Virus record (IMG/VR): IMGVR_UViG_2698536506_000001 | Coordinates: 1 to 13,042 of that record | From: a virus | Lineage: Duplodnaviria > Heunggongvirae > Uroviricota > Caudoviricetes | Direction: 5' to 3' (one strand) | Length of the DNA: 13,042 nt | Shown here: piece after piece, positions 1 to 13,042 of the stretch | Layout of the letters: each line of letters opens with the position of its first letter | How positions within the stretch are numbered: position 1 is the first letter of the stretch | Position numbers and translations under genes: made by a program | Notes under the pieces: model-generated | What the model was told of the DNA's origin: nothing | The model's database searches: none | The model's input: the letters and a program-made list of their open reading frames with translations, nothing else

Positions 1-1
1 G

Positions 2-316
2 GTTTCTTTTAAAGGTTATTACGGTGATCTGGCCATCATGGTGGCGAAAACAACGTATGTTGATGAAAACGGGGATGAGCAGCGTTATCTGCCGGAAGGC
101 ACACTGATTCTTGGAAACACTCAGGTGGAGGGTGTCCGTTGTTATGGCGCAATCCAGGATAACCAGGCGCTGAGTGAAGGGATCACCTCTGCAATTCGTT
201 ATCCGAAACACTGGCTGGAGGTGGGTGATCCTGGTTGCGAATATACCATGACGCAGTCTGCGCCGTTGATGGTGTTGCCGGATCCTGACGCGTTTGTGGT
301 GGTTCAGGTGAAATAA
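2..316 (+). CDS. Major capsid protein, lambda gpE family (C-terminal fragment; 5' end is upstream of the window)
   Basis: Frame is open from position 2 to TAA at 314-316; the track ORF 38..316 is only the first in-frame ATG. Translation ...KGYYGDLAIMVAKTTYVDENGDEQRYLPEGTLILGNTQVEGVRCYGAIQD...IRYPKHWLEVGDPGCEYTMTQSAPLMVLPDPDAFVVVQVK aligns closely with the lambda gpE C-terminus as I recall it (...LGNTQARGLRTYGCIQD...ARYPKNW...FTMIQSAPLMLLADPDEFVSVQLA). Recalled homology, not searched. Confidence 0.8.
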   Translation, partial: VSFKGYYGDLAIMVAKTTYVDENGDEQRYLPEGTLILGNTQVEGVRCYGAIQDNQALSEGITSAIRYPKHWLEVGDPGCEYTMTQSAPLMVLPDPDAFVVVQVK

Positions 317-320
317 GGTC

Positions 321-346
321 AGGCGGGATATTCCCGCCTTTTTCTT
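321..346 (+). terminator. Rho-independent terminator-like hairpin plus T-tract downstream of the capsid gene
   Basis: AGGCGGG (321-327), loop atatt, CCCGCCT (333-339) is a perfect 7-bp GC-rich stem, followed by TTTTTCTTT. Seen directly in the sequence. Confidence 0.55.
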
Positions 347-366
347 TATCGCACGGGAGAGATGTG

Positions 367-732
367 ATGACAAAAGAGCAGATGACGGAACGCCTTCAGG
401 CGCTGGCAGTGATTCTGGGGCGTGAAGCAGATATTTCAGGTTCAAAGGCCGATCTTGAGCAGCGCCTGGCGGAATGGGAAGAGGAGGCCGCCGGATTCGA
501 TGGGGAGGATACCGGGGCGGAAGAGGTGGACAACGATGCATCCGGCGACGGGATGCATTCTGAGCGGGGACTCGTCCGGGTGCGCATGCTGAAAACAGCG
601 CATATGCCAGCCTGTGATGCTGTGACGGGAAAAATGTTGATGTTCGCCCGGGCCTCCAGTGTTGTGCTGGTTAATGAAGCCGCAGTTCCTGCGTTGCTGG
701 CGGACGGTCTGGCAGAAAAAATCCGGGAGTGA
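367..732 (+). CDS. Head DNA-packaging / head-completion protein, lambda FI-like
   Basis: ATG at 367 sits 6 nt after GGGAGA (355-360); GTG at 364 is an alternative start. Position is immediately after the capsid gene, as in lambda. N-terminus MTKEQMTERLQALAVILGRE...GSKADLEQRLAEWEEE resembles recalled lambda FI (MTKDELIARLRSLGEQL...GTKEELALRVAELKEE). Acidic middle region. Confidence 0.6.
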   Translation: MTKEQMTERLQALAVILGREADISGSKADLEQRLAEWEEEAAGFDGEDTGAEEVDNDASGDGMHSERGLVRVRMLKTAHMPACDAVTGKMLMFARASSVVLVNEAAVPALLADGLAEKIRE

Positions 733-1136
733 TGATGTCCGATAATCTGTTCGATCAGGCCATGAGTGATGCGGATGACATCATCCTGGATACGATGGGG
801 ACGGAAATCAGCATATATCCGGGCGGCACGGAAAGAAAAATCCGTGCTGTTTTTGATGCCCCGGCAGATAACACCGGGATGAACACTGGCAGCGGCGAAA
901 TTCGTGATACTGCACCGGTGTTATTTACCCGGAGCGCATGGGTTGCCGGACTGAAAAAATATGACAGGGTCATGATCCACGGCGAACCCTACCAGGTGGT
1001 CGATCCTGGCTGGGATGAGTCAGGCACTGCGGGTCATGGTGTGATTACCATTACTCTTGCGCGGGGAGAACCCGGAAGAAGTACACCCGCCGCCCCTGTC
1101 CGACCGAGTAAACGTTATGACAGTCAGAGAGCATGA
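732..1136 (+). CDS. Head-tail joining protein, lambda FII-like
   Basis: Start ATG 732 overlaps the upstream stop (TGATG); ATG 735 is an alternative. Translation MMSDNLFDQAMSDADDIILDTMGTEISI...IRAVFDAP...PVLFTRS...IHGEPYQVVDPGWDESG follows the pattern of recalled lambda FII (MADFDNLFDAAIARADETIRGYMGTSATI...IRGVFDDP...PSLFVRT...IGEENFWVDRVSPDDGG). Confidence 0.65.
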   Translation: MMSDNLFDQAMSDADDIILDTMGTEISIYPGGTERKIRAVFDAPADNTGMNTGSGEIRDTAPVLFTRSAWVAGLKKYDRVMIHGEPYQVVDPGWDESGTAGHGVITITLARGEPGRSTPAAPVRPSKRYDSQRA

Positions 1137-1839
1137 ACGAAGCACTGTCCGGCAGCGACGGCTGGCACGAAACCTCGTCGTCGATATTGACGAGGATGAT
1201 GTGCTGAAAATTATCGCTAAACTGGGTGGTTCAAAAAGCCAGATCCGTAAAGCCTGGGGCGTGGCGCTGAAAAGAGCCGCGTCCGCACTGCGGATGAAGG
1301 CCATGGCAGAGTTTAAAAAACAGGTTGCGCCACGCAGCCAGAAAATGATCAAAAAACGTGTCCTGAATGCTTTTATCATTCGTCGAAATGGCGATGAGTT
1401 TGATGAGGCAAAGGTGTGGTTTGGCCTGAACGCCATCAAAGTACGTGATTTGCGCGGACGCATCAGTGGGGGACGACGCGGCGAACGCCATCAGTTGCGC
1501 GATGAACGGGGGCGTTTTGCACCGGCTTCCCGCCGCAGGAAAGTGCCGGAGATTCGTTTTAAACCTGCCGGGGAGGCAATACCGGTCACAACCTGGTCAG
1601 GTGAAGAGGCTTTTGTTAATGAGTTTGAGTCTGAAAACCGGCGCGGACGCATTTCACGACGTAAGACGGTACTGGTCAGGCAGGCATCCGGACGACGACG
1701 GGTGCGCGAAGCGGAAATTGATATTTATGAAGCCATGCTGAACCGTATAGAGGATTTTGTTTTCCCTGATGCGGAAGCACTGATCCTGAAAAATTTTGAG
1801 CATGAACTGAAATTCCGGGTATTTAAGGGGATGGAGTGA
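1117..1839 (+). CDS. Hypothetical arginine-rich virion/connector-region protein (about 240 aa); function unassigned
   Basis: Long ORF in the co-directional operon. The track start 1057 is a TTG; the first ATG is 1117 (MTVREHERS...), overlapping the FII-like gene by 20 nt. Contains two Arg-rich blocks sharing an RGRIS motif. Occupies the slot of lambda Z (after FII), but I cannot confirm homology by eye. Confidence 0.5.
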   Translation: MTVREHERSTVRQRRLARNLVVDIDEDDVLKIIAKLGGSKSQIRKAWGVALKRAASALRMKAMAEFKKQVAPRSQKMIKKRVLNAFIIRRNGDEFDEAKVWFGLNAIKVRDLRGRISGGRRGERHQLRDERGRFAPASRRRKVPEIRFKPAGEAIPVTTWSGEEAFVNEFESENRRGRISRRKTVLVRQASGRRRVREAEIDIYEAMLNRIEDFVFPDAEALILKNFEHELKFRVFKGME

Positions 1840-2402
1840 TGGAACCATTGATGATGGGAACCTGGCATCAGGCAGTGATTGACAGTCTGAAACAAATTCC
1901 CTGGGTGGAAGATGCCGATGAGTACCCGGAAAAAGTGACGCAACTGGTGACGCCTGCCGTGTTTGTGGATGTACCCGGATGGGACAAGGCTCAGTTTGCC
2001 GACGGGCAGACACGGGTCACGCTGAAATGCGATCTGTTTGTGGTGACAGACCGGGCCGGGAAGACGGAAAACGTGCCAAAACCGCAGATTTTTGCCCGCT
2101 GTCTGGCGATGGATTTATCTGACTGGATTGATGGAGCCACGTTCGGGCTGGATAACGTTGACCCGGCTGTTTTTATCGATGCTGAGGTGGATACCTTCGA
2201 CCGGCTGCTGGACGACTACATCGTTTTCCGTGTTTCTTTTGAACAGGACATTCCGGTCGGCGAAGATCCGTTTGCGGCTCCGGCAGGTGTGCCGTTACAG
2301 GAAGTCTGGCTGAGTAAAGTACCGGAAACCGGTAAAAAGCATGTGCAGGATTATCGTCTTATCTGGAAAGCGGAGGGCACCGGCGATGAGTCTGGCGGAT
2401 GA
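1839..2402 (+). CDS. Hypothetical protein (about 187 aa), candidate tail-completion / tail-terminator or neck protein by position
   Basis: ATG 1839 overlaps the upstream stop (GTGATG; GTG 1836 is an alternative). Lies between the lambda-type head-completion genes and baseplate gene V, the slot taken by lambda U or P2 R/S. Only weak, unconvincing resemblance to lambda gpU by eye. Confidence 0.5.
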   Translation: MEPLMMGTWHQAVIDSLKQIPWVEDADEYPEKVTQLVTPAVFVDVPGWDKAQFADGQTRVTLKCDLFVVTDRAGKTENVPKPQIFARCLAMDLSDWIDGATFGLDNVDPAVFIDAEVDTFDRLLDDYIVFRVSFEQDIPVGEDPFAAPAGVPLQEVWLSKVPETGKKHVQDYRLIWKAEGTGDESGG

Positions 2403-3009
2403 AGTGGCAGAGTTACGCCGCAGGGTGGCGGACATGGTCCGTCGTGGCGTGGTGGAAGAGGTGATCCCGGGTAACCCGGTGATGGTTCGGGTGGATATCG
2501 GGGATGTGCTTTCGCCGCCGTTGCCCTGGATTCAGATGCAGTCCGGGCGTTACATGCAGGTCAGTAATTACCCGGCACCAGGAGATGCGGTCACGGTGAT
2601 ATCGGAGGCGGGCGATCTGCGTAACGGTCGTGTGTATCCGGGGGCGAATATTGACGCCATTCCTGTACCGACGGGCAGTGAACACGAGCATGTTATTTTG
2701 TTTGATACTGGAACGGAAATCCGTTACGACCGTAAAGCCAATGCCCTGTCCATCACGCTGGCTGAAGGCGGCAGCTATAAAATTACCGGCAGGGGGACGC
2801 TGGACGGTCCGGTGGAAATCACGGATACCCTGACTGTGCAGGGAAAAACGAAGATTAATGCCGATACGCAGGTTATGGGCAATATCGGTGCCTCACAGGA
2901 GATCACCGACAAAACCGGTAGCATGAGTAAAATTCGCGAAATTTATAATACTCATGATCACCCTGGCGACAGCGGGGGAACCACCCGTAAACCTAACCAG
3001 GAAATGTGA
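2386..3009 (+). CDS. V: Baseplate assembly protein V (central spike), P2 gpV family
   Basis: ATG 2386 (MSLADEVAELRR...) is preceded by GGAGGG 7 nt upstream and overlaps the previous gene by 17 nt; the track start 2341 is less likely. About 207 aa, P2 gpV-sized. C-terminal ...HDHPGDSGGTT matches the gpV-family motif I recall (HKHPGDSGGTT). First gene of the V-W-J-I-H-G order. Confidence 0.8.
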   Translation: MSLADEVAELRRRVADMVRRGVVEEVIPGNPVMVRVDIGDVLSPPLPWIQMQSGRYMQVSNYPAPGDAVTVISEAGDLRNGRVYPGANIDAIPVPTGSEHEHVILFDTGTEIRYDRKANALSITLAEGGSYKITGRGTLDGPVEITDTLTVQGKTKINADTQVMGNIGASQEITDKTGSMSKIREIYNTHDHPGDSGGTTRKPNQEM

Positions 3010-3031
3010 ACGCCGCACCGGCGTTTTTTTT
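3010..3031 (+). terminator. Terminator-like hairpin plus T8 tract between V and W
   Basis: ACGCCG (3010-3015), loop CAC, CGGCGT (3019-3024) forms a 6-bp stem, followed directly by eight T residues. Seen directly in the sequence. Confidence 0.45.
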
Positions 3032-3043
3032 CGGAAAAATTTC

Positions 3044-3400
3044 ATGATTGGTATTGATTCCACCACCGGCAGATATCTGCACGGTAACGAACATCTGCGT
3101 CAGTCCGTCACCGATATTTTGTCAACACCAGTCGGCAGCCGGGTACTTCTCAGGGAATACGGCAGCAGGTTGTTCAGTCTGCTTGATAACCCGCAGGATG
3201 ATTTCACACGGGTGAGGATTGTCCGTGAGACGGTTACTGCTCTTGAACGCTGGGAACCGAGACTGACGATCCGCCGTGTGGAGGTGAGCTTCGGCGGTGA
3301 GGGAAATGTCATGTTGACGCTTTTGGGCGTGAATAACGAAACACAGGAAACAATTCGTCTGGAGGAAATCAGAATTGACAACGTCTCAGGCCATTATTGA
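3044..3400 (+). CDS. W: Baseplate wedge protein W (GPW/gp25 family)
   Basis: ATG 3044 (MIGIDSTTGRYLHGNEHLRQSVTDILSTPVGSRV...) gives 118 aa, the P2 gpW size. The track start 2954 would overlap the V 3' end and the hairpin. Position between V and J. Confidence 0.8.
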   Translation: MIGIDSTTGRYLHGNEHLRQSVTDILSTPVGSRVLLREYGSRLFSLLDNPQDDFTRVRIVRETVTALERWEPRLTIRRVEVSFGGEGNVMLTLLGVNNETQETIRLEEIRIDNVSGHY

Positions 3401-4289
3401 TTTGTCCGCGATACCTGTACCGGATGCGGTGGAGGTGCCGGACACCGCTGTGCTGGTCACTCAGATAGTGGCGAAATATCAGGAACTGGACACGTTGTTT
3501 TCGGCCCTGGTGGAATCAGATCCGGCGTATAAATGGGCGGAGGCGCTTGCTTTTCGGGTGGCGCTGATGCGCCAGCAGGTCAATGATGCAGTCCGGGCTG
3601 TACTGCTTGCCAGTGCCCGCAGGAACGATCTGGATCAGATTGGTGCGAATTTTCAGGTGCAACGTCTGGTGATTACTCCGGCAGATGACAGCACTATCCC
3701 GCCCACGCCTGCGGTGTATGAAGATGATGACGCTTTTCGCGAACGTATTCAGTTGTCATGGGCACGACTCAGCACCGCAGGCGCGAAAAACGCATACCAC
3801 TATTTTGCACAGAGTGCCGATCCTGATGTGCTGGATGTGAAAGCCTACGGGCCGGAAACGCATTCACAGGAAGGGCGTGTTTTTCTTTATGTGTTATCGC
3901 GAACCGGAAACGGTACGGCATCGCAACCCCTGCTGGATAAGGTGGCAGCGTCAGTCAATGATGATGAAATTCGACCTCTGACGGATTTTGTCAGTGTCCG
4001 TGCGGCAGAAATTATTCCCTACGATGTGGTTGCAGATATTCATATTCCCTACGGGCTGGATGGTGAACTGGTGATGAAAAATGCCCGTCAGGCGCTGCAG
4101 ACATACACTGACAGTGTTCACCGGATTGGTTCTGTGGCGTCCTGCTCCGGTATGGACGGAGCCCTGCATCAGACGGGGGTGATTACGGTGGCACTGAAAT
4201 CGCCGGTCAGTGATATTGTTCCGGCGATGGGACAGGCTCCATGGTGTCGCTCAGTCACACTGAACAAGGTGGAGACAACCGATGAATGA
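3375..4289 (+). CDS. J: Baseplate assembly protein J
   Basis: TTG start at 3375 with GGAGGA 8 nt upstream, overlapping the W 3' end. N-terminus ...IIDLSAIPVPDAVEV... resembles recalled P2 gpJ (MPIIDLNQLPAPDVVEEL...). 304 aa against about 302 for P2 J. Confidence 0.75.
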   Translation: MTTSQAIIDLSAIPVPDAVEVPDTAVLVTQIVAKYQELDTLFSALVESDPAYKWAEALAFRVALMRQQVNDAVRAVLLASARRNDLDQIGANFQVQRLVITPADDSTIPPTPAVYEDDDAFRERIQLSWARLSTAGAKNAYHYFAQSADPDVLDVKAYGPETHSQEGRVFLYVLSRTGNGTASQPLLDKVAASVNDDEIRPLTDFVSVRAAEIIPYDVVADIHIPYGLDGELVMKNARQALQTYTDSVHRIGSVASCSGMDGALHQTGVITVALKSPVSDIVPAMGQAPWCRSVTLNKVETTDE

Positions 4290-4863
4290 CATCATCAGAA
4301 GCATACTTCCTGTCAGCGCCAGCCGGGCAGAGCGGGTGGTGGACAGTACCGCCGGTGATATGCTGGCGGAAATCGCGGTCTGTCTGATCCGCTATGTAAA
4401 AAATCCCGATTTATGTCCGACGGAATTGCTGCCATGGCTGGCCTGGGAAATGTCGGTGGACACCTGGAATGAATACTGGACGGAGGCGGAAAAAAGAGCG
4501 GCGATAAAACGTGCCGCTTATATCCATCGTCACCGGGGAACAAAAGCCGCCCTGAACGAATCACTGACAGACAGCCCGTTCCGGTCACAGATTGTGGAGT
4601 GGTATGAGCAGACGCCACCAGGTGAACCCTATACCTTCCGGTTGAATGTGGAGCAGAAGGATTTACCGGTACAGATGAATGACTATCAGGATCTGAAGCA
4701 TGCGGTGCTCCGTGCCAAAAATCTGCGCAGCTGGTTCAGTGTTCATCTTTACGGAAACAGCAGGGGGCGTGTTTTTGGTTACGGTTATGTGATGGCAACA
4801 GAAAAAGTCAGTGGTATCAGTGCTGATGATACCCGGGGTATCCGGGATGAGTGGGTGGAGTGA
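4282..4863 (+). CDS. I: Tail protein I (baseplate)
   Basis: ATG 4282 overlaps the J stop (ATGAATGA). 193 aa. Position between J and H, with a conserved-looking LLPWLAWE.SVD.W block. Confidence 0.75.
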   Translation: MNDIIRSILPVSASRAERVVDSTAGDMLAEIAVCLIRYVKNPDLCPTELLPWLAWEMSVDTWNEYWTEAEKRAAIKRAAYIHRHRGTKAALNESLTDSPFRSQIVEWYEQTPPGEPYTFRLNVEQKDLPVQMNDYQDLKHAVLRAKNLRSWFSVHLYGNSRGRVFGYGYVMATEKVSGISADDTRGIRDEWVE

Positions 4864-4866
4864 GTT

Positions 4867-6240
4867 GTGGGTATGCATGGACTAGTTTTGACAACAGCCG
4901 GGGCAGCCGAAATTGAAGCTGCATATCATGCCGGTGAGGTGGTGACCATCAGTCAGGTGATGATTGGTGACGGGGGCGGGAAAACACTGCCCTCAACGCC
5001 GGATGAGATGGCGGCGATGGTCATGTTGTGTGGTGAGTTTGGTCGGGAGCCCTTTTCAGGCGGTGTGGTGGACGAAGGTTTTATCAGCGGAGATATTGTC
5101 ATTGACTGTCAGTCATACCCGGGTAAGACCCTGCGTGAGCTGGGCATGGTGAGTCATCGTGGTACGCTGATTGCGTATGGTCGTTATCCGGATACGTATT
5201 TACCGGCACAGACGGATTCCGTTATCAAGGAGGTGATACTGACACTGGTTCTTGCTCTTACACATACACAGAGTGTGACGCTGGAGGTGGATCCTCACAG
5301 GGCGATTATCACGCAGGAGGCCGGAGATAAACGCTATCTGCGCATCGGCGAGAATCTTGCCGATGTGGAAGATAAAGATGAAGCGGTTGATAACCTCGGA
5401 TTAAAACCTACGGTGGATAAAGCGAAAAATGCCGTTCAGCGTGATGGTGACACCATGACCGGGGAGCTGAAAATTGGCACGGTGAATGCGCTGCGAATTT
5501 TCGACGATGCTTTTGGCCTGATTTTTCGTCGTTCGGAAGAATATCTTCATTTTATCCCGACGTCTGAAGGACGGGGCGAAAACGGTGATATCGGCCCATT
5601 AAGGCCATTTGCTATAAATCTGAGAACAGGCGCTATATCAGTCAGCCACGGTGCAAAAATTGATGGTGGGCTGGCGCTTGGTACGAATAACGCATTGGGT
5701 GGTAATTCTATTACTCTCGGTGATAACGATACAGGTATAAAACAAAACGGCGACGGCATTCTGGATGTTTATGCTAATAATCAGCGCGTATTTCGCTTTC
5801 AGAATGGAGTTGCTATTGCTTTTAAAAACGTTCAGGCCGGGGATAGTAAAAAATTCACGCTATCCAGCTCCAACAGCTCCACGAAGAACGTAGGGTTTAA
5901 TTTATGGGGTAATCCATCCAGACCTGTAGTTGCAGAACTTGGTGATGATTCCGGCTGGCATTTCTACAGTCAGAGAAATACAGACGATAGCGTCACATTC
6001 GCTGTAAATGGGCAGATAACTCCATCAAACTACGGAAACTTTGATGCCCGCTATCAGACCAAAACAGGCGGCGTGCAGGATGTACGTCTGGGAAGCGCCA
6101 TTGGTATTGGACGCGGGGGAAATGCGCCATCAGGTCATTTACTGAGTGGTGTTGATGGCGGTGAAAGTGTGAACTGGGCCAATGCACGCCCGGTGCAGGT
6201 TCTGATTAATGGCGTCTGGAGAAATGTAGCGAGTTTGTAA
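4867..6240 (+). CDS. H: Tail fibre protein H (receptor-binding)
   Basis: GTG 4867 (or ATG 4873) starts 4-10 nt after the I stop. N-terminus ...LVLTTAGAAEIEAA...IGDGGGKTLP resembles recalled P2 gpH (...TVITTAGAAKLAAA...VGDGGGKLPVP). C-terminal about 230 aa (ALGGNSITLGDNDTGIKQNGDGILDVYANNQRVFRFQNGVAIAFKNVQAGDSKKF...NLWG...RPVVAELGDDSGWHFYSQRNTD) matches the conserved fibre C-terminal domain shared by P2 H, Mu S and related fibres. Confidence 0.85.
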   Translation: MGMHGLVLTTAGAAEIEAAYHAGEVVTISQVMIGDGGGKTLPSTPDEMAAMVMLCGEFGREPFSGGVVDEGFISGDIVIDCQSYPGKTLRELGMVSHRGTLIAYGRYPDTYLPAQTDSVIKEVILTLVLALTHTQSVTLEVDPHRAIITQEAGDKRYLRIGENLADVEDKDEAVDNLGLKPTVDKAKNAVQRDGDTMTGELKIGTVNALRIFDDAFGLIFRRSEEYLHFIPTSEGRGENGDIGPLRPFAINLRTGAISVSHGAKIDGGLALGTNNALGGNSITLGDNDTGIKQNGDGILDVYANNQRVFRFQNGVAIAFKNVQAGDSKKFTLSSSNSSTKNVGFNLWGNPSRPVVAELGDDSGWHFYSQRNTDDSVTFAVNGQITPSNYGNFDARYQTKTGGVQDVRLGSAIGIGRGGNAPSGHLLSGVDGGESVNWANARPVQVLINGVWRNVASL

Positions 6241-6242
6241 TC

Positions 6243-6788
6243 ATGATGCACTTAAAAAATATTACGGTACAAAACCCTAAAACAATTGAGCAATACCAGC
6301 TGGCGCGACAGCATAAATTTTTATTGTGGCTGTTCTCAGATGATGGACAGGAATGGCACGAAGCCCAGGAAAAATTTCTACCAGACACCCTGAAAGTTAT
6401 TTATGTTAAAACTGGCGAAGTGGTCTGGGTCGGAAAAGACATCACCTCAATCTGCCCGGAAAATAAAAGCGTGATTGAGTTGCCGGATATTACCGCTAAT
6501 CGTCGCATTGAAGCATCAGGCTACTGGTTTTACCGCAATGATGAATTTGTTTTCGACTACAAACTTAAAGCGGAAGACGAGCGTGATGCCCTGTTAAAAC
6601 AGGTCAGTATCATGACCAGCGAATGGGAAAAAGACCTGCTGCTGGGATTAATCAGCGACGAAGACAGGGAAAAGCTGAAAGCGTACCGCATTTACGCGAA
6701 ATCGTTGCAGGCGATGGATTTCAGTGCCATCAACGATAAAACCTCATATAACGCCATTGAGTGGCCAGTACCTCCACAAAACACCTGA
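6243..6788 (+). CDS. G: Tail fibre assembly chaperone (P2 gpG / Tfa family)
   Basis: ATG 6243 lies 2 nt after the H stop. MMHLKNITVQNPKTIEQYQLARQ...LWLFSDDGQEWHEA...ELPDITANRR resembles recalled P2 gpG (MQHLKNIKSGNPKTKEQYQL...LWSEDGKNWYEE...EVPDITSNRR). 181 aa. Confidence 0.85.
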   Translation: MMHLKNITVQNPKTIEQYQLARQHKFLLWLFSDDGQEWHEAQEKFLPDTLKVIYVKTGEVVWVGKDITSICPENKSVIELPDITANRRIEASGYWFYRNDEFVFDYKLKAEDERDALLKQVSIMTSEWEKDLLLGLISDEDREKLKAYRIYAKSLQAMDFSAINDKTSYNAIEWPVPPQNT

Positions 6789-6806
6789 AAAAGAAGTAAA
6801 TCAACT

Positions 6807-6830
6807 GACCGCCTCAGGGGCGGTTTTTTT
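6807..6830 (+). terminator. Rho-independent terminator-like hairpin between the fibre-chaperone gene and the sheath gene
   Basis: CCGCC (6809-6813), loop tcagg, GGCGG (6819-6823), extendable by A-T and G-T pairs, followed by seven T residues (6824-6830). Confidence 0.55.
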
Positions 6831-6843
6831 ATGGGAGAAATGT

Positions 6844-8319
6844 ATGTCCGGACTACATGGTGTGGAAACCATTGAACTGACGACAGGCACGGTTGCCGTG
6901 CAGACCGTCTCCACGGCAGTGATTGGCCTCGTGGGGACAGCGCCGGACGCCTCCGGCGGTGTGTGTGCTTCCGGTACTGCCGGATCATGGTTGTTGAGTT
7001 CCGCGCTGGATTTTACAGCGAAAAAAGCCGGGCGGTCCGGCAATGAGATTTCAGTTGTGGCCAACGGAAGCACGCAGCAAAACGCAGAGACAACCGCGGC
7101 TCTGGAGGGAAACACCCTGACGATCACACTGGGCACAGATGAACATGGTGAGAGGAATGCCACTGCGTCACGTGTGAAGGAGGTTGTGAATGCGCTGGAG
7201 GATTCACCGGTGATGGCCGATACCAGCATGCTGAATGCAGATTCTGTCGGGGAAGGAGTGGTATCTCCCTTTACCCTGACGTTGTCCGGCGGTGAGGATG
7301 AGGCATTTCCGGTTAATACGCCGGTGGTGGTGGCGGGGGCACTGACGCAGGCCGGAAAGCTGGGGGCTTCCGGAACGCTGTATCCTGCCCTGCGTGATAT
7401 TTTTGACCAGACCGGTGCGCTGGTGATTGTGGTACGTGCGGAAAGCAAACCGAAAGCGAAGGAGGCAGAACAGCGTGCCGCAGTGATTAAGGCCATGGAA
7501 GCTCTGACGAAGAGCAAAGGCGTAACAGGCTACCAGCCGCGTATTCTTGTCGCCACTGGCTACAGCGAGGATGATGGTGTGGCAAAGGCGCTGGAAACGT
7601 ATGCCGCGAAACTGCGGGCTGTTGCCTATATTGACTCCCCCTCAATGGTAACGCCGCAGGATGTGGTTCAGCGCCGGACGTTATTTGGTGGGCGTGTTGA
7701 ACTGCTTCGTCCGCGCGTGTCGGTGACGGATGACAGCGGACAAACAGTGTTTCGCCCGTATTCGGCACGCGCTGCCGGACTGCGTGCCCGTATTGATTAT
7801 GAAAAAGGATGGTGGTGGTCCAAATCAAATCAGGACGTGATGAATATCACCGGTCTTGAGCAGGTGGATACATTTATTCTCGGGGAGCAGAACTGCACGG
7901 CAAATCTGCTGAACATGGAAAACATCTCCACCATTATTCGTCATGACGGTTTTAAACACTGGGGTAACCGCCTGTGCACATCTCATAGCCAGTTGCGCTT
8001 TGAGTCTGTGCGCCGTACGGCTGATGTGATTGAAGACAGTGTTCAGGAATCCATGTTGCCTTATGTTGACCGTCCGATTGATCGGGATGTTGCGGACGAT
8101 ATTCTCGGCAGTATTAATGCCTACATGCGCCAGCTTAAAAATCTGGGCGCGATCCACGGTGGTAGCGCATGGCTGAACGACGAACTGAATACAGCAGAAA
8201 CCCTGGCTGCCGGGCAGTTGTATATCGACTATGACTTCGGGCCGAAGTCACCACTGGAACGCCTGACGCTGCGGACAATGATCAACAATAAACTGGCACA
8301 GGAGGAACTGACAGTATGA
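6844..8319 (+). CDS. FI: Contractile tail sheath protein (P2 FI family)
   Basis: ATG 6844 is 5 nt after GGGAGA. The track start 6724 lies inside the tfa gene and spans the terminator, so it is rejected. N-terminus MSGLHGVETIELTTGTVAVQTVSTAVIGLVGTAPDASGG resembles P2 FI ([39 protein letters not shown]). C-terminal blocks GLRARIDYEKGW, IRHDGFKHWGNRLCT and NTAETLAAGQLYIDYDFGP...PLERLTLR match the sheath family. 491 aa. Confidence 0.85.
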   Translation: MSGLHGVETIELTTGTVAVQTVSTAVIGLVGTAPDASGGVCASGTAGSWLLSSALDFTAKKAGRSGNEISVVANGSTQQNAETTAALEGNTLTITLGTDEHGERNATASRVKEVVNALEDSPVMADTSMLNADSVGEGVVSPFTLTLSGGEDEAFPVNTPVVVAGALTQAGKLGASGTLYPALRDIFDQTGALVIVVRAESKPKAKEAEQRAAVIKAMEALTKSKGVTGYQPRILVATGYSEDDGVAKALETYAAKLRAVAYIDSPSMVTPQDVVQRRTLFGGRVELLRPRVSVTDDSGQTVFRPYSARAAGLRARIDYEKGWWWSKSNQDVMNITGLEQVDTFILGEQNCTANLLNMENISTIIRHDGFKHWGNRLCTSHSQLRFESVRRTADVIEDSVQESMLPYVDRPIDRDVADDILGSINAYMRQLKNLGAIHGGSAWLNDELNTAETLAAGQLYIDYDFGPKSPLERLTLRTMINNKLAQEELTV

Positions 8320-8834
8320 TGTCATGCGAAAAAAAACTGCTACGGGCATGGGCGCTCTTTCTGCCGGGTGGTATTCGCCTTCAGGGGGCACATGAATACA
8401 CGCCTCCGGCCATCAATATCACGAAGGTGGACATCAAAACCGGTGCGATGGATGCGCCGGTGTCAGTGGATGACGGTATGGAGGCGCTGACCTGCTCGTT
8501 TAAAATTTACGGATACGACGTGGCCATACTGACCCTGCTTGGATTGCAGGCAGGGATTTATTCGCCAGAAATTGTTGTCCGTCAGGCGTATCAGGTGGGC
8601 GGTGCAACAAGCGGTCTGGTGGAAACCCTTCAGGGGATGATCACCAGTATCACGCCGGATGCGCGTCCGTCCACCTCGCAGGCGGAAGCAGCGGTGTCGG
8701 TGGAAATGTCACTGAGTTATTACCGCCAGGCTGTCGATGGACTGGAAACCATCTGCATTATTCCGGAGCAGTTTGTACGGCGCATTAACGGTGTGAATGT
8801 GCTGTCGGATCTGAAAAAAATTATCCGTGTGTGA
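8316..8834 (+). CDS. FII: Tail tube protein (P2 FII family)
   Basis: ATG 8316 overlaps the sheath stop (ATGA), with AGGAGG 10 nt upstream. 172 aa, the same length as P2 FII. Sits immediately after the sheath gene. Confidence 0.8.
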   Translation: MMSCEKKLLRAWALFLPGGIRLQGAHEYTPPAINITKVDIKTGAMDAPVSVDDGMEALTCSFKIYGYDVAILTLLGLQAGIYSPEIVVRQAYQVGGATSGLVETLQGMITSITPDARPSTSQAEAAVSVEMSLSYYRQAVDGLETICIIPEQFVRRINGVNVLSDLKKIIRV

Positions 8835-8854
8835 GCCGGAGAAGTGGTCATTCA

Positions 8855-8880
8855 GGCGGCTCAGGCCGCCTTTTCTTTTT
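8855..8880 (+). terminator. Terminator-like hairpin plus T-tract after the tube gene
   Basis: GGCGGC (8855-8860), loop tcag, GCCGCC (8865-8870), followed by TTTTCTTTTT (8871-8880). Confidence 0.5.
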
Positions 8881-8894
8881 AAGAGGAAATCAAT

Positions 8895-9197
8895 ATGCCA
8901 GAGATAAACAGTATTCCCTGCAGCAGCGTGGAGATTGTGTTATCCGTGCCGTATGTCACTGCGTCAGGTCAGACAATCTCGCATGTCACCATGCGTGCAC
9001 CCACCGTCCGCGATCGTCTGTTACATCGCCGGAGTACCAAGCCGGAAGCAGAAGCCGATCTGGATATGATAGCCGGCCTGTGCGGAATGGATGCGGCGGA
9101 CATGATGAATATGGAAGCGTGTGATTACCTGTCCCTGGAGCGGCAGTTTAATGTTTTTTTGCTGCCGCCGGTCAGGCGGAAGAAGACAGCATCCTGA
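8895..9197 (+). CDS. E: Tail assembly chaperone E (zero-frame product)
   Basis: ATG 8895 with AAGAGGAAA upstream. 100 aa. Sits between the tube and tape-measure genes and carries a slippery heptamer near its 3' end. Confidence 0.7.
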   Translation: MPEINSIPCSSVEIVLSVPYVTASGQTISHVTMRAPTVRDRLLHRRSTKPEAEADLDMIAGLCGMDAADMMNMEACDYLSLERQFNVFLLPPVRRKKTAS

Positions 9198-9334
9198 CAG
9201 CGATACGGCGCGCCGGTGCCTGGTTCGGGTGGTCTCCCGGAGATGTGATGGCACTGCCGTATGCAGATTTTGTGTCAATGATGCTGGAGGAATCGGAAGA
9301 GAGGCGGCGACGTTATGGCAACGGTGGGCGATAA
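8895..9334 (+). CDS. E': Tail assembly chaperone E+E' (-1 frameshift fusion product, about 146 aa)
   Basis: After a -1 slip at 9155-9161 the frame reads FFAAAGQAEEDSILTAIRRAGAWFGWSPGDVMALPYADFVSMMLEESEERRRRYGNGGR then stop, overlapping the tape-measure start by 20 nt. Same arrangement as P2 E/E'. Inferred, not experimentally shown. Confidence 0.55.
9155..9161 (+). promoter_or_regulatory. Candidate -1 programmed ribosomal frameshift site (slippery heptamer T TTT TTG)
   Basis: Zero-frame codons GTT TTT TTG (9153-9161) give the heptamer T_TTT_TTG. The -1 frame is open from here to TAA at 9332-9334. Confidence 0.6.
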
Positions 9335-10970
9335 CCTGAAAGCGAATATCAGGATCGGCGGCACGATAGATCCGTCGTGGAAAAAATCGGTTGATGGACT
9401 GAAGCACGGATTATCAGGGGCAACGCAGGAAGTGGCTCGCCTGACTCGCCAGCAGGATGTACTGAAACGAAAAATTCAGGCTGGCGTACTGGCAGGGCAG
9501 GATATTACTGAACTGCGAAAGCAGTATGAAAAGCTGGGCAAAAAAATTCATGATGCCACCGGAGAGCAGGATAAATTTAACCGTAAGCTGGCACGTGCGG
9601 AACGTCTGGAACGCTGGAAAGGGCGTGGAAAGACCGCTCTGAAAGCGGGGTTAGGGCTTTCGGTTGGGGGGGGACTGACACTGGCAGGCGCTGCCGGTAC
9701 AGCACTTAGCCGGAACAGTGAAACTGCAGAGCGGGCAGGGATAGCCCGGAGTTACGGTGTGGATTATGAGACGTATGCAGCGTGGGATTCGCTGGGTAAG
9801 CAGATGGGGCTGAACGGGGAAAACTTCGGGGATCTGTTTGAGGAGTACCGTAACAAGGTTTTTGATGATGATAATGGCGCATCGGATAAAGGTGCCATAC
9901 AGCAGGTCTTCGGGGCGCTGGGGCTGAAAACCGGGGTGATGGCGGGAAAAAACAACCAGGAGCAGGTTGAATTTCTTTTTGACCGATTGCTGCAGGTGAA
10001 GGATGAACAAAAGGCTGCCGGGATGGCGGATGCATTGTTTGGTGGTGAGGGTAATAAGATCCTGACCTGGATACGTCTGTCAGGAAAAACTTACCGGGAG
10101 CTTATTGAGGAGCAGAAGCGCTATAACCTGGTGACCAGGGAAGGGGCGGATGGTGCCGTCCGGGGACATATCGCCGTCTCAAACCTCACCGGTGTTCTGG
10201 GTTCGTCCATTGATGAAATCTGTGGACAGCTGGGGAAAGAGCTGGCACCGAATATTCAGCAGGTCACGGACGACCTGGCGGACTGGTTTAAAAACGGCGG
10301 GCTGGAAAAAATCAATACATTTATCAGAGAGGACGCGCTGCCGATGTTGATCAAGGTGACGGCCTGGGCGTGGAATTTTGGAAAAGTCATTGCCGGGCTC
10401 ACTGAAAAGGCCATCGAGTGGGGGCTGGCTGAAGATCCACGGAGTGACCGGCGTGAGGTGCTGGAATATCTGGCAAAAACAGGCTCACCAGAGCTGGCAA
10501 GGGCAGTGGCGAAGAGGAACGGGCAGGATAAATGGTTTGATGATCAGCTTAAAAAAAATCCCGATCTGACGAAGCAGGTTGTGAAGGCGTATACAGACAC
10601 ACGCGGTTTCCTGAGTGATGACGATAAAAAATTTGAGGCATCCCTCGAGCCTTTTCTGGGGCCAAAAGACGATCCGGACTTTGACGGATGGGAAAAGAAA
10701 GCGCTTGATGTCCTCGCGAAGTATGACACCCCACCCGCTACAAAACAGGGGCAGGAAAAAACGGATCCTCTTTCTGCGCTTCACTACGTTCCGGGCAGTA
10801 TCAGCCAGGTGGAAGTAAAACCCACGTATCAGATACGGGCTGAATTTAACCTCACCCAGAAGCCCGGCGAGGATGCCGGACAGCTGGCAGACAGGGTGAC
10901 GAAAAATCTGGGTGATATTGATTTTGGCCAGCGGGCCAGCATGACCGACAGTTATGCATTCTGGGGGTGA
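9315..10970 (+). CDS. T: Tail tape measure protein
   Basis: 551-aa ORF immediately downstream of the frameshifted chaperone pair. Contains a Gly/Ala-rich hydrophobic stretch (LKAGLGLSVGGGLTLAGAAGTAL) typical of tape measure proteins, and coiled-coil-like charged regions. Confidence 0.8.
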   Translation: MATVGDNLKANIRIGGTIDPSWKKSVDGLKHGLSGATQEVARLTRQQDVLKRKIQAGVLAGQDITELRKQYEKLGKKIHDATGEQDKFNRKLARAERLERWKGRGKTALKAGLGLSVGGGLTLAGAAGTALSRNSETAERAGIARSYGVDYETYAAWDSLGKQMGLNGENFGDLFEEYRNKVFDDDNGASDKGAIQQVFGALGLKTGVMAGKNNQEQVEFLFDRLLQVKDEQKAAGMADALFGGEGNKILTWIRLSGKTYRELIEEQKRYNLVTREGADGAVRGHIAVSNLTGVLGSSIDEICGQLGKELAPNIQQVTDDLADWFKNGGLEKINTFIREDALPMLIKVTAWAWNFGKVIAGLTEKAIEWGLAEDPRSDRREVLEYLAKTGSPELARAVAKRNGQDKWFDDQLKKNPDLTKQVVKAYTDTRGFLSDDDKKFEASLEPFLGPKDDPDFDGWEKKALDVLAKYDTPPATKQGQEKTDPLSALHYVPGSISQVEVKPTYQIRAEFNLTQKPGEDAGQLADRVTKNLGDIDFGQRASMTDSYAFWG

Positions 10971-11461
10971 CGATGGTGGATTTTGTTGGCTTTGGCGCAA
11001 ACATGATTGAGCGCAGGGCATGGGACAGGATTGGTTCATTAACCGATGTGGCCTCGCGGGTCATGCTGTCGTTTGGTGAGTTTGAGTTCAGTATTGATTC
11101 TGCGGCGTATAACGCCATGAAGCGCACCATGGAATGGCGATGGGATGAGCAGCAGTTAATCGGAAAAAAGGATCTGTTGCAGTATACCGGTAAGGGGGCC
11201 AGAACGATAAGCCTTGAAGGGATGGTTCATGCGGGATTTCGTGACGGTGTGGGGATGGATGCCCTTGATACGCTGGTTCAGATGGTGGATAAAAATCCTG
11301 CGCCGCATCTGCTGGTTTCCGGGACGGGGGATGTGATGGGGTATTTTGTTGTAACCGCCTATTCAGATAACACCACGTCCTTTCTTCCCGGCGGTGCGCC
11401 GAAAAACAAAACGTTCACACTGGAGCTGAAATACTATGGCGAAAAACTGGCGGACCACTGA
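10967..11461 (+). CDS. U: Tail protein U-like (tail formation)
   Basis: GTG 10967 overlaps the T stop (GTGA); ATG 10973 is an alternative. About 164 aa. Assigned by position (T-U-X-D), as in R-type pyocin and P2-like tails; sequence homology not verified. Confidence 0.6.
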   Translation: MTMVDFVGFGANMIERRAWDRIGSLTDVASRVMLSFGEFEFSIDSAAYNAMKRTMEWRWDEQQLIGKKDLLQYTGKGARTISLEGMVHAGFRDGVGMDALDTLVQMVDKNPAPHLLVSGTGDVMGYFVVTAYSDNTTSFLPGGAPKNKTFTLELKYYGEKLADH

Positions 11462-11654
11462 CGGCGATATGCTGGATGATATCTGTCAGAGACACTACGG
11501 CAGCGCCGGACTCAACCAGTCACTGGCGGCGGTACTGGAGGCTAATCCCGGGCTGGCTGATCTTGGTCCGGTGTATCCGTCCGGGGTGGAAATCGTGTTA
11601 CCGGACTGGACATATGAGCCGGAAGAGAAGGAGACGTTTCAGTTATGGGACTGA
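11436..11654 (+). CDS. X: Tail protein X (small LysM-like)
   Basis: 72 aa. ...DGDMLDDICQRHYG...AVLEANPGLADLGPVYPSGVEIVLPD resembles recalled P2 gpX (...QGDTLDAICVRYYG...VLAANPGLAELGAVLPHGTAVELPD). Confidence 0.7.
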   Translation: MAKNWRTTDGDMLDDICQRHYGSAGLNQSLAAVLEANPGLADLGPVYPSGVEIVLPDWTYEPEEKETFQLWD

Positions 11655-12721
11655 ATGAATATCAGCCGGATTTCAGTCTGACGGTGGAAGGCGAGGATAT
11701 CACGAAAGCAATAAAACGCGGACTGGCTGAACTGCGTTATACCGATAATGGTGCTGCCACAAAGCGGGCTGATGAGTTAATGATAACGCTGTTCAGTGAA
11801 ACGCTGGCATTGCCACCGAAAGGCGCAGTATTAACGCTGGGGCTGGGGTTTAACGGACGTCTGGTGAATAAGGGTAGCTTTACTGTCTGTCAGGTGGCAA
11901 GCGGTGGCCCTCCCCGCCGGATCACCATTTATGCCACAGCAGCCCCCATGAATGCGTCCAGGCATGGTGCAGATGTGACTGCACTGAAAACCCGCGCCTT
12001 CAGCGATGTCACGCTGGGTGACCTGGTAAAAACGATCGCCACTGAAAATAATCTGGTGGCGCGGGTATCTCCGGTACTGGAGGAAATTCGTATTCCGTGG
12101 GTGATGCAGTCATCTGAGTCGGATGCGTCCCTGCTTTCCCGGCTTGCAGGGATGTACGGTGCCACCAGTAAACCGACGAACGGTTACTGGTTATTTCTGG
12201 AGTATGGTGCGTCGCAGAGTACCGGAGGCAGGGATGCCCCAGTGATGACCATCACACCGGATATGGTGTCAGACTGGGATTACCGGGAGGGCGATCGGCA
12301 GGGGGCATCTGGAGGCGGAAAAGGGGGAAAGGTTGGTGTCAGGTACTTTACTCCGTCTGATGGTCGCACGCGTGAACTTAAAGTGGATGTGGAGTCCACA
12401 GACAAGCGGCATCCCTTCACCCAGCCAGACCAGAGCACGGCAGAACATTGTGCACAGTCGAAGGTAAAGCGGGTGCAGAAAGCGGGGCGTCAGATGACGA
12501 TAACGCTGCCCTGCCGACCGGTATTGCTGAAAGCGGGGGCGGAAGTGCGCTTTATCACACGGGGCTTCGGGGTACGGGAGGACCATAACTGGCAGGCAGA
12601 GTCAGTGGAATTTTCGTTGTCACCGGGGCAGGGATTTTCGCTGAATCTGTCGCTGGCCACGGATATTTCTGCAAAGGGGAAAGCCAGTGGCAAGAAAAAA
12701 GGCGTCAATTATTTTGGTTAA
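11645..12721 (+). CDS. D: Tail protein D (late control gene D family)
   Basis: ATG 11645 overlaps the X 3' end. 358 aa against 387 for P2 gpD. Terminal gene of the tail module. Confidence 0.8.
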   Translation: MGLNEYQPDFSLTVEGEDITKAIKRGLAELRYTDNGAATKRADELMITLFSETLALPPKGAVLTLGLGFNGRLVNKGSFTVCQVASGGPPRRITIYATAAPMNASRHGADVTALKTRAFSDVTLGDLVKTIATENNLVARVSPVLEEIRIPWVMQSSESDASLLSRLAGMYGATSKPTNGYWLFLEYGASQSTGGRDAPVMTITPDMVSDWDYREGDRQGASGGGKGGKVGVRYFTPSDGRTRELKVDVESTDKRHPFTQPDQSTAEHCAQSKVKRVQKAGRQMTITLPCRPVLLKAGAEVRFITRGFGVREDHNWQAESVEFSLSPGQGFSLNLSLATDISAKGKASGKKKGVNYFG

Positions 12722-12745
12722 TGTTTTCTGAATCAGGAAATAAAA

Positions 12746-13042
12746 ATGTCTGTATTAATTTCGGGTGTGCTGACGGATGGCGCGGGACTCCCCATGTCCG
12801 GATACCATATTATTCTGAAAGCCAGACAGAATACATCCGTAGTGGTCATGAGAACGGTGGCGACAGTGGTGACAGGTCCGGCAGGAGAATATGCTTTTGA
12901 AGCTCAGACCGGAAAATATGACGTTTATCTTCGGTCGTGTATTGAAAGGGAATACTGTGTCGGTAATATTTCGGTTTACCACGATTCAACGCCCGGCACG
13001 CTGAATGATTTTCTGACAGCCATCGATGAAGGCGACCTCAAG
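12746..13042 (+). CDS. stf: Side tail fibre protein, lambda Stf-like N-terminal domain (5' partial; continues beyond the window)
   Basis: ATG 12746, 8 nt after AGGAAA. Open for 99 codons to the window edge, so not in the supplied track. Translation MSVLISGVLTDGAGLPMSGYHIILKARQNTSVVVMRTV...GEYAFEAQTGKYDVYL...GNISVYHDSTPGTLNDFLTAIDEGD aligns with the recalled lambda Stf N-terminus (MAVKISGVLKDGTGKPVQNCTIQLKARRNSTTVVVNTV...GRYSMDVEYGQYSVIL...GTITVYEDSQPGTLNDFLCAMTEDD). Confidence 0.7.
   Translation, partial: MSVLISGVLTDGAGLPMSGYHIILKARQNTSVVVMRTVATVVTGPAGEYAFEAQTGKYDVYLRSCIEREYCVGNISVYHDSTPGTLNDFLTAIDEGDLK

Follow-up and report, generated by a model that had tools for sequence, protein, structure and literature searches.

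Probable exchange of a fibre-tip and chaperone cassette within the P2-order tail module of an Escherichia coli-type prophage

The 13,042-nt stretch of viral DNA analysed here (the window) very probably carries, at ∼5455-6751, a host-range cassette that was replaced as a unit by recombination within a prophage tail module of P2 gene order. A step in base composition, the homologies of the two sides, a collapse of identity in an otherwise near-identical relative, a 96% match to an unrelated prophage and the two joints are all observed directly; the recombination mechanism and the direction of transfer are proposed from them. The cassette would comprise the distal shaft and tip of the tail-fibre protein H, the fibre-binding N-terminal domain of the assembly chaperone Tfa and most of the Tfa C-terminal domain.

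The window represents the tail module of a temperate myovirus prophage of E. coli type. Gene order is of the P2 type, V-W-J-I-H-tfa followed by sheath-tube-E-T-U-X-D, and the Pfam families GPW_gp25, Baseplate_J, Tail_P2_I, Phage_tail_fib, Caudo_TAP, sheath and Phage_tube are detected, together with weak matches to Phage_base_V and Phage_GPD. RefSeq annotation of the relatives agrees with a P2-type contractile tail module. The heads of these relatives are annotated as lambda-like (S49 peptidase, head-decoration protein, major capsid protein and gpFI), making the phage a head/tail hybrid that is not filed as P2-like. Membership in the Peduoviridae was rejected, as the relatives do not have P2-type capsid and packaging genes.

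The fibre gene H, on the plus strand, consists of two parts that very probably differ in origin. Its 5' part (4867-5352) encodes the N-terminal baseplate-attachment domain, with residues 6-150 matching PF12571 Phage_tail_fib (E 1.3e-16), and is of backbone type, as GC (54.1%) and GC3 (0.549) are backbone-like and identity to a prophage of E. coli strain C5 is 97.5%. The distal part (5455-6240, plus strand), which encodes the shaft and receptor-binding tip, forms the first half of the cassette and is Mu gpS-like, residues 197-456 aligning to residues 268-503 of 5YVQ_A, the Mu tail fibre protein S (phmmer, E 3.9e-19), with additional patches resembling T4 gp34 and gp37. If Mu, P1 and P2 are a guide, the receptor of the tip is probably the LPS core. 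The second half of the cassette is tfa (6243-6788, plus strand), directly 3' of H, whose stop lies at 6240. It encodes a 181-aa tail-fibre assembly chaperone, the gpG/gpU equivalent, of which residues 41-179 match PF02413 Caudo_TAP (E 1e-21; 77.9 bits, gathering score 22.1) and residues 1-159 match Mu gpU (5YVQ_B; E 2e-32). Tfa proteins of alternative cassettes (C5-own and A10) are only 35-39% identical overall in alignment A1, with a variable N-terminal domain and conservation concentrated in the C-terminal domain. This agrees with the modular Tfa model of North et al. (2019, Nat Microbiol 4:1645; summarised in PMC9608196), in which the N-terminal domain binds the fibre and varies while the C-terminal domain is conserved. 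H would depend on Tfa for folding and trimerisation of its tip, and tip and chaperone would travel together because the variable Tfa N-terminal domain must fit the tip that it folds. Between tfa and the sheath gene lies a terminator-like hairpin (6807-6832, plus strand) with an 8-bp stem containing 5 GC pairs followed by TTTTTTT. C5-own, PapRG and 52F4 keep it, whereas phiP27 and the neighbouring C5 prophage lack it (alignment A3); it is backbone sequence and marks the end of the V-W-J-I-H-tfa operon.

A low-GC segment had been described over the fibre end and chaperone in an earlier note, and the dip is real, GC being 45.8% over 5500-6788 compared with 53.5% over 1-5499, 53.7% over 6789-13042 and 52.9% in the whole window. 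The steps proposed at ∼5500 and ∼6790 do exist but at other positions, as a two-state fit by maximum likelihood puts the low segment, irrespective of strand, at 5351-6880 (45.8% vs 53.8%, LLR 17.2), with the left change point at 5351-5361; shuffles agree with the fit. Flanks of 55-68% GC had been claimed, whereas the computed flanks range over 47-60% in 300-nt windows with a mean near 54%, 65% being attained in 60-nt windows only in a small region where the sheath gene begins, and the step is ∼8 points and not 15-20. Nor does the low-GC part correspond to the 3' third of H; it starts near codon 163 of 457 and therefore covers the distal ∼60-65%. The right step, at ∼6880, lies ∼120 nt past the recombination joint described below (6752-6760), the intervening backbone being AT-rich and consisting of the tfa end, the spacer that holds the terminator and the opening 12 codons of the sheath gene. 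A random fluctuation of base composition has a practically negligible probability of accounting for the dip. Although shuffling in 300-nt blocks matched the observed score once in 200 trials, none of 200 did so at each of the block sizes of 1, 30 and 150 nt, the lowest 1289-nt window of the whole 13-kb sequence falls here (starting at 5518), and the borders of the dip coincide with homology breakpoints mapped independently of composition.

Low GC arises differently in the two genes, residing at synonymous sites in H and in the amino-acid composition of the product in tfa. In distal H (47.1% GC), GC3 is about 0.41-0.42, with z about −6 to −7.4 relative to backbone blocks. At 44.1%, tfa has the lowest GC among the ORFs examined (other ORFs, 51-58%), with the deficit at GC1 (0.50) and GC2 (0.31; z about −3), while GC3 (0.511, z = −1.7) is not significantly low. 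Of the deviation at synonymous positions expected for a horizontally exchanged segment, only the portion in distal H was found. In Tfa, K, E, I and Y are over-represented while G, A and R are scarce, and with low GC located at codon positions 1 and 2 the cause is protein composition and not foreign codon usage; GC alone would therefore not prove transfer of tfa. The same local dip is seen in Mu, in which the Sc, Sv and U genes have 44-47% GC vs 53-54% for baseplate genes, and in the alternative cassettes of the prophage family, all at 44-50%; GC is 49.6% in the structural module of the neighbouring C5 prophage and 52.7% around the phiP27 cassette. As the fibre-tip and chaperone module is low in GC wherever it is found, composition cannot identify the donor, and naming a donor by GC was dropped. 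These same observations would suit an account without any transfer, in which the dip reflects amino-acid composition and functional constraint of fibre tips and chaperones. This is very improbable, as distal H combines a normal GC2 (0.436) with a GC3 of 0.409 (z = −7.4), and neither the identity collapse in C5 nor the 96% match to an unrelated prophage nor a tenfold wider distribution can come from composition. Composition is contradicted as sole explanation but still valid as a partial cause for tfa.

Comparison with the prophages of strain C5 supports replacement. The breakpoints that the earlier note had expected in aligned homologues are evident here: in one C5 prophage both flanks agree with the window at ∼97-100% identity (96.8% over 1-5470 and 98.5% over 6709-13041), and similarity collapses at ∼5470-6750, where sequence is diverged or unalignable and the middle instead encodes an H of 408 aa and a Tfa of 175 aa. 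Against this near-identical backbone, distal H retains 88.6% identity over just 49% of its length. Conversely, a neighbouring, unrelated C5 prophage matches the window at 96.3% over 1321 nt (5455-6775) and nowhere else; its fibre is 95.0% identical to distal H over 100% of the length and its tfa is 98.1% identical, with the phiP27 tfa at 93.8%. This neighbour has a Mu-type baseplate (J/gp47) and shows no similarity to the V-to-tape-measure backbone genes of the window. The window-type and phiP27-like prophages sit tail-to-tail in strain C5. PapRG-04-4 carries the same chimera as the window, at 98.9%.

Cassette and backbone also differ in distribution. Megablast of the whole 13 kb against 50,697 phage records yielded matches only within 5353-6766; backbone homologues were absent from these records by this search and were found in E. 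coli chromosomes, in which the family numbers ∼72 prophages. When the cassette and the adjacent backbone were compared with equal-length queries across 5426 E. coli genomes, the cassette was detected in 705 genomes at 882 places, mostly as pieces, with only 21 full-length and 32 on plasmids, while the backbone was detected in 74, with 69 full-length. Homologues of the H N-terminal part occur in these 74 E. coli genomes only, every one in J-I-H context. Separate searches with the two parts of H, as the earlier note had advised, returned different nearest phage relatives with no overlap among top matches. Residues 1-162 matched 113 phage records, the best being a Klebsiella member of the Peduoviridae at 69.7% aa identity, and residues 197-457 matched 728, with phiP27, Actinobacillus phage pPE4, P1, Yersinia YpM phages, P2 gpH and T4-like phages as best matches (tblastn: P1, 53.6% over 99% of the query; P2 gpH, 66% over 68%). 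A scan of genome contigs with full-length H detected four weak loci in Xenorhabdus and Apirhabdus (34-51% aa), none of which spans the H N-terminal domain (query residues 158-456 at most). These four loci fit the wider spread of distal H and add little.

Both joints lie in conserved patches, the left in a linker within H and the right in the conserved C-terminal part of tfa. The linker (…NLADVEDKDEAVDNLGLKPTVDKAKNAVQRDGDTMTGEL…; 5353-5470, plus strand), the left recombination zone, keeps 87-95% identity in every family member and in phiP27, even where the H N-terminal part is only 77% identical (alignment A2). Match edges on this side are staggered, phiP27 similarity starting at 5353, that of the C5 neighbour starting at 5455 and that of C5-own ending at 5470. 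The left joint can be placed only within 5256-5470 because the comparisons yielded an exact parent for neither side; at best, the donor proxy reaches 96% and the recipient proxy ∼98% identity. The right crossover interval (6752-6760, plus strand) falls within the last 12 tfa codons: in alignment A3 the sequence is of the phiP27/C5-neighbour type up to 6751 and of the backbone (C5-own) type from 6761 on, so that the Tfa C-terminus, …WPVPPQNT, is backbone-like in comparison with the donor-type end, …WPVSPEASS. The exchange proposed in the earlier note is supported, but its borders at 5500 and 6790 are replaced by homology joints at 5353-5470 and 6752-6760. The GC borders of the cassette agree with these breakpoints.

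We suggest that the cassette was swapped by homologous recombination between these two short patches, the NLGL/GDTMTG linker in H and the 3' end of tfa, which are conserved across otherwise unrelated fibre genes. It is part of a pool that also serves phiP27- and pPE4-like prophages with Mu-type baseplates, and most probably entered the window lineage from a phage of this type. Transfer of an adhesin-plus-chaperone cassette is supported by the comparative data, whereas its direction, into the lineage of the window, is inferred. The opposite polarity, in which the cassette is native to the family and was exported to phiP27-like prophages while the C5 lineage acquired a foreign one, is unlikely but retains an appreciable chance. 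The same tfa type is present in four of seven more distant family members (52F4, ETEC1732, 401651 and M8) at 87-94%, above the backbone identity of 83-86% and sheath identity of 83-84%, and the C5-type 175-aa tfa is found only in some members (C5, A19 and A10); as the tfa type exceeds sheath identity in distant members, the cassette may be a long-standing resident and C5 the lineage that changed. Contrary to this, distal H shares 95% identity with the outsider prophage vs 73-80% with family relatives, and cassette GC (45.8%) is nearer to the neighbour genes of the outsider prophage (43-49%; module 49.6%) than to the backbone (53.7%). Entry from a phiP27/pPE4-like phage is preferred.

The left joint coincides with a position known from an invertible system. 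The core AACCTCGGATTA, at 5392-5403 in the linker, is homologous to the Mu gix crossover site, and the linker aligns to Mu gpS 122-196, spanning the annotated G-segment boundary; the gix sequence was confirmed at both G borders in the Mu genome. Given this alignment of the left border with the Mu Sc/Sv junction, the homology of H and Tfa to Mu S and U, and a Mu gix that encodes IQNLGLQE where AACCTCGGATTA in the window encodes NLGL, the cassette could be, or recently have been, a site-specifically invertible host-range switch such as Mu G, P1 C or e14 P. This is extremely improbable, since the 26-nt Mu gix has no match within 3 mismatches in the 13-kb window, the 12-nt core is present in a single copy in the 13 kb, no bracketing inverted repeat >20 nt surrounds the cassette and no second, inverted Sv'/U' gene pair lies beside it. 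There is no room for an invertase gene because the sheath gene starts 55 nt after tfa. The cassette has a single minus-strand ORF of at least 90 aa (6692-6988), which overlaps coding sequence and bears no resemblance to Tfa. A Din-invertase invertible segment (Mu G, P1 C, e14 P, p15B Min) was accordingly rejected, for want of paired crossover sites and an invertase gene. The linker does keep the Din-invertase core in the Mu gixL reading frame, and on this basis it might be imagined as a dual-use exchange junction at which cassettes move between co-resident prophages of different types, such as those of strain C5, by homologous recombination and by occasional invertase events at degenerate sites. 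This idea is speculative and quite unlikely; if true, prophage-to-prophage exchange within one chromosome would be the main route of host-range change.

The arrangement resembles several known systems. As in Mu gpS/gpU (PDB 5YVQ), the chaperone gene is directly downstream of the fibre gene; unlike Mu, the window is without a G-segment (gix pair, gin gene and alternative S'/U' set), its N-terminal domain and baseplate are P2-type and not Mu-type, and nucleotide similarity is confined to ∼70-80 nt at the H-tfa junction. With P2 H/G it shares the operon order V-W-J-I-H-G, a terminator before the sheath operon and a distal fibre 66% identical to gpH over 68% of the query (residues 85-261), but H is shorter (457 aa), the relatives have lambda-like heads and the lineage has a second fibre gene after gpD. 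The nearest copies of the cassette are p54/p55 of Stx2e phage phiP27, Actinobacillus phage vB_Apl-pPE4 and the pPE4-like prophage of E. coli C5. phiP27 is 91.6% identical to the window over 6017-6775 and 75% over 5353-5807, and pPE4 is 70-76% identical to the cassette. In all three, baseplate, sheath and tape-measure genes follow Mu gene order and lack detectable similarity to the window at the nucleotide level. Their tfa ends in …SPEASS, and the next gene encodes a second fibre, in contrast to the terminator and sheath gene of the window. Exchange of the fibre C-terminal part together with its chaperone among unrelated phages (P2 H/G, P1, Mu, lambda and T-even) was reportedly described by Haggard-Ljungquist, Halling and Calendar in 1992 (J Bacteriol 174:1462). 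Distant Alteromonas phages share host-recognition modules consisting of a fibre plus its cognate chaperone (PMC10579305), and recent shuffling of fragments is known for receptor-binding proteins (PMC10684548). The process in these systems is the same, with fibre and chaperone transferred together and the C-terminus swapped while the N-terminus is conserved, but hosts differ and the protein families are unrelated, so that they show only that the phenomenon is established.

Fibre-tip and chaperone exchange is a long-known, ordinary, textbook feature of phage genomes; the present case does not challenge current understanding and its practical value is modest. For annotation it carries a caution, in that low GC in a tfa gene is a matter of protein composition and does not by itself point to foreign origin. 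The window is a clean, well-delimited example of the known modular replacement of tip plus chaperone, with the right joint mapped to within 10 nt and the left to ∼100 nt or wider, both inside conserved patches. The NLGL/GDTMTG linker and the last 12 tfa codons would be natural splice points for chimeric fibres or tailocins with changed host range.

The tail module of the window lies on the plus strand in P2 gene order: V (2341-3009, weak Phage_base_V match), W (2954-3400, GPW_gp25), J (3375-4289, Baseplate_J), I (4282-4863, Tail_P2_I), the 457-aa fibre gene H (4867-6240, Phage_tail_fib at residues 6-150), the 181-aa chaperone gene tfa (6243-6788, Caudo_TAP), the sheath gene (about 6844-8319, sheath domains), the tube gene (8316-8834, Phage_tube), the tape-measure gene (9315-10970, no Pfam match), U (10967-11461) and D (11645-12721, weak Phage_GPD). 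The names of the tape-measure gene and U ('phage tail protein') come from RefSeq annotation of relatives. In a comparison with solved structures, two parts of H (residues 128-203 and 197-456) align to protein S of the Mu tail fibre (5YVQ_A, E 3.9e-19), short patches of H resemble T4 gp34 and gp37, and Tfa residues 1-159 align to Mu gpU (5YVQ_B, E 2e-32); distal H is a distal fibre of the Mu S type and tfa encodes a Caudo_TAP chaperone. Between tfa and the sheath gene, at 6807-6832, a strong hairpin resembling a terminator (GACCGCCTCAGGGGCGGT and then T7) is kept in related E. coli prophages and missing from phiP27-type loci. It probably ends a late operon running from V to tfa and fits the arrangement of P2, in which V-W-J-I-H-G form one late operon.

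A single sustained GC trough is observed in the sliding-window profile, GC passing in 300-nt windows from 0.49-0.54 at ~5100-5550 to 0.43-0.49 over 5550-6900 and to 0.55-0.59 from ~6750. GC is 45.8% over 5500-6788, compared with 53.5% over 1-5499 and 53.7% over 6789-13042, in line with the low-GC stretch that the earlier note had placed at ~5500-6790 from hand counts. The note's estimate of 55-68% for the flanks was too high, the average being ~54%, and the low-GC part of H extends beyond the 3' third to the distal 60-65% of the gene. The best low-GC segment in a two-state likelihood scan (segments of 300-4000 nt) is 5351-6880 (LLR 17.2), the lowest-GC 1289-nt window of the whole sequence starts at 5518, and none of 200 shuffles attained the maximal LLR when blocks of 1, 30 or 150 nt were used; one of 200 did so at a block size of 300 nt. 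Thus, the dip exists, lies where the earlier note put it and exceeds chance expectation.

The composition of the two genes differs by codon position. GC1/GC2/GC3 values are 0.613/0.436/0.568 in pooled backbone genes, 0.568/0.436/0.409 in distal H (5353-6240) and 0.500/0.313/0.511 in tfa. GC3 of distal H lies 7.4 SD under contiguous backbone blocks matched in length, its GC2 being normal. In tfa the deficit falls at codon positions 1 and 2 (z ~ -3), GC3 is not significantly low (z = -1.7), and the product has an excess of K, E, I and Y and few G, A and R residues. The dip thus arises in two ways, from synonymous sites in H and from protein composition in tfa. The alternative cassettes of related prophages all show the dip (distal H 48-50%, tfa 44-47.5%, backbone 53-54%), as does Mu (Sc, Sv and U 44-47%, baseplate genes 53-54%). 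Low GC is a trait of the module family wherever it resides and indicates no particular donor.

Backbone and cassette have separate relatives. When all 13 kb were compared by megablast with 50,697 phage records, matches were confined to 5353-6766 (phiP27, an Actinobacillus phage, Yersinia YpM phages, Xuanwuvirus and a Citrobacter phage). The backbone gave no match in this collection, and the prophage family is therefore without a close relative among its isolated phages. Prophages of the window type occur in ~72 of 5426 complete E. coli genomes, and that of PapRG-04-4 is 98.9% identical across 2235-13042, cassette included, the same chimera thus being already present in RefSeq. In strain C5, the window-type prophage reaches 96.8% identity across 1-5470 and 98.5% across 6709-13041, whereas between these positions only 5696-6081 aligns, at 88.6%; its H and Tfa products are 408 and 175 aa. 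The fibre and tfa genes of the adjoining phiP27/pPE4-like prophage in C5, a separate element with a Mu-type baseplate J/gp47 gene, match window 5455-6775 at 96.3% over 1321 nt, and this neighbour resembles none of the V-to-tape-measure backbone genes. By segment, the C5 window-type prophage has 98-99.6% identity in the backbone, 88.6% in distal H (49% coverage) and a tfa copy that is not alignable, compared with 0%, 95.0% (100% coverage) and 98.1% (100%) for its neighbour and 0%, 77.0% (73%) and 93.8% (100%) for phiP27. The incongruence of backbone and cassette is directly visible in these values.

Distribution was compared using two 1436-nt queries against the E. coli genomes. The backbone query (3917-5352) was found in 74 genomes, with no less than 80% of the query covered in 69, and the context was J-I-H throughout. 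The cassette query (5353-6788) matched 882 places in 705 genomes, only 21 at 80% of the query or more; the matches are for the most part fragments lying in fibre genes of differing annotation, and 32 are on plasmids. In tblastn against phages, H residues 1-162 matched 113 records, led by a Klebsiella Reipivirus (Peduoviridae, 69.7% aa), while residues 197-457 matched 728, led by phiP27 (75%) and followed by pPE4, P1 (53.6%, 99% of query), Yersinia YpM phages and P2 gpH (66%, 68% of query), with Tequatrovirus (T4-like) records also in the organism summary. The two parts of H thus have separate nearest relatives, a check suggested by the earlier note, and the note's proposed exchange of an adhesin-plus-chaperone cassette is supported.

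Both joints can be placed in aligned homologues. At the right, the sequence is of phiP27/C5-neighbour type up to 6751 and of backbone type from 6761, placing the crossover 28-36 nt ahead of the tfa stop codon; consequently, Tfa ends in …EWPVPPQNT as in the C5 window-type prophage and not in the donor-type …EWPVSPEASS. This joint falls within a C-terminal part conserved among otherwise divergent Tfa proteins. The position of the joint and the pattern of conservation agree with the two-domain model given in PMC9608196, which cites North et al. 2019: there, fibre binding is the task of a variable N-terminal domain, and trimerisation that of a conserved C-terminal one. The left joint lies inside a linker (5353-5470). 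Identity in this linker is 87-95% across all family members and phiP27, including those in which the neighbouring N-terminal domain of H falls to 77%, and the GC change point (5351-5361) coincides with the linker's start. The match to the donor proxy (C5 neighbour) starts at 5455 and that to the recipient proxy (C5 window-type) stops at 5470, but divergence from the latter climbs already from 5256 (24 mismatches in 5256-5464), so the joint can be narrowed only to 5256-5470. Within the cassette, which elsewhere is 96% identical, a 13-nt patch at 5479-5492 has 7 differences from the C5-neighbour, phiP27 and 52F4 copies. This patch encodes KIGTV instead of KIRGV, is shared by PapRG-04-4 and is a micro-mosaic or small conversion tract.

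The linker aligns to Mu gpS residues 122-196, and the annotated G-segment boundary of Mu is codon 170 of S, where the repeated site TTATCCAAAACCTCGGTTTACAGGAAAC encodes IQNLGLQE. Window 5387-5410 (GTTGATAACCTCGGATTAAAACCT) encodes VDNLGLKP, and the 8-nt core AACCTCGG is common to this stretch and the Mu site. By position, the cassette is thus bordered on the left by the homologue of the Mu Sc/Sv junction. An invertible segment was considered and rejected: the site is degenerate, with no match to the Mu site within 3 mismatches in the window, the core is present in one copy, and no inverted partner site, invertase gene or alternative gene set was found there. Thus, the window shares with Mu the S-type distal fibre and gpU-like chaperone but not the invertible segment, and the locus is a fixed cassette.

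The account we consider most likely has four parts. The N-terminal domain of H would anchor the fibre to the phage's own baseplate and so remain part of the backbone; the receptor, probably LPS core by analogy with Mu, P1 and P2, for which LPS core is the receptor, would be set by the distal shaft and tip; the tip would require a chaperone with a fitting N-terminal domain and the two would therefore be inherited as a unit; and short patches common to many fibre families, flanking this unit, would let phages or prophages with no other relationship recombine homologously within one cell. Anatomy, homologies and the exchange as such are demonstrated by the data, whereas the recombination mechanism, the need for the chaperone and the receptor are inferred. 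The polarity of transfer is uncertain. Import is favoured by distal H, which is 95% identical to the outsider in C5 but only 73-80% to family relatives, and by cassette GC, nearer to the outsider's neighbourhood than to its own backbone. The reverse, a cassette type resident in the family, is a less likely alternative that draws on the wide occurrence of a similar tfa type there (87-94%) but fits the distal H identities and cassette GC less well.

Further features of these prophages were noted. Gene I (homologous to window 4282-4863) encodes 800-860 aa instead of 193 aa in several relatives (L011:5366-7933, L012:4577-7162 and L013:4582-6993 of the related loci) and is a second variable site beside the fibre gene, the extension possibly being an added receptor-binding or depolymerase part; strain A19 has an extra ORF also ahead of H. 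The beginning of a second tail-fibre gene occupies 12746-13042, downstream of gpD; relatives have it annotated as 'prophage tail fiber N-terminal domain'. Its nucleotide identity to the corresponding second fibre genes in phiP27 (p56), pPE4 (gp69) and the C5 neighbour is 71-74%, and two fibre sets are therefore probable for this phage. The two C5 prophages lie tail-to-tail (L001:14120-15915, L009:5884-7721) with their second-fibre genes cut to N-terminal fragments facing each other, which suggests deletion or rearrangement between them at homologous fibre genes. Two ORFs within 8831-9334 (8831-9124 and 8895-9197) overlap in different frames; in relatives the annotation gives a tail assembly gene of 303 nt and, after it, an ORF of 138 nt that overlaps the tape-measure start. 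This looks like the frameshifted E/E' tail chaperone pair of P2.

The prophage as a whole is not a P2-like phage, because relatives carry lambda-like head genes by RefSeq annotation. In these relatives, the stretch upstream of the counterpart of window 1-2340 (L001:1-3360, L003:1-2335) is annotated with an S49 protease, decoration protein, major capsid protein and gpFI, and the family is a head/tail hybrid, in which head genes that look lambda-like are joined to a P2-order contractile tail. The same phenomenon of fibre exchange was reportedly described in 1992 for P2 H/G, Mu S/U, P1 S/U and lambda stf/tfa (Haggard-Ljungquist et al., J Bacteriol 174:1462). Fibre/chaperone exchange has since been generalised (PMC10684548, PMC10579305). 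The observation is thus confirmed and its interpretation supported, and the finding is an ordinary one, an instance of a phenomenon already known.
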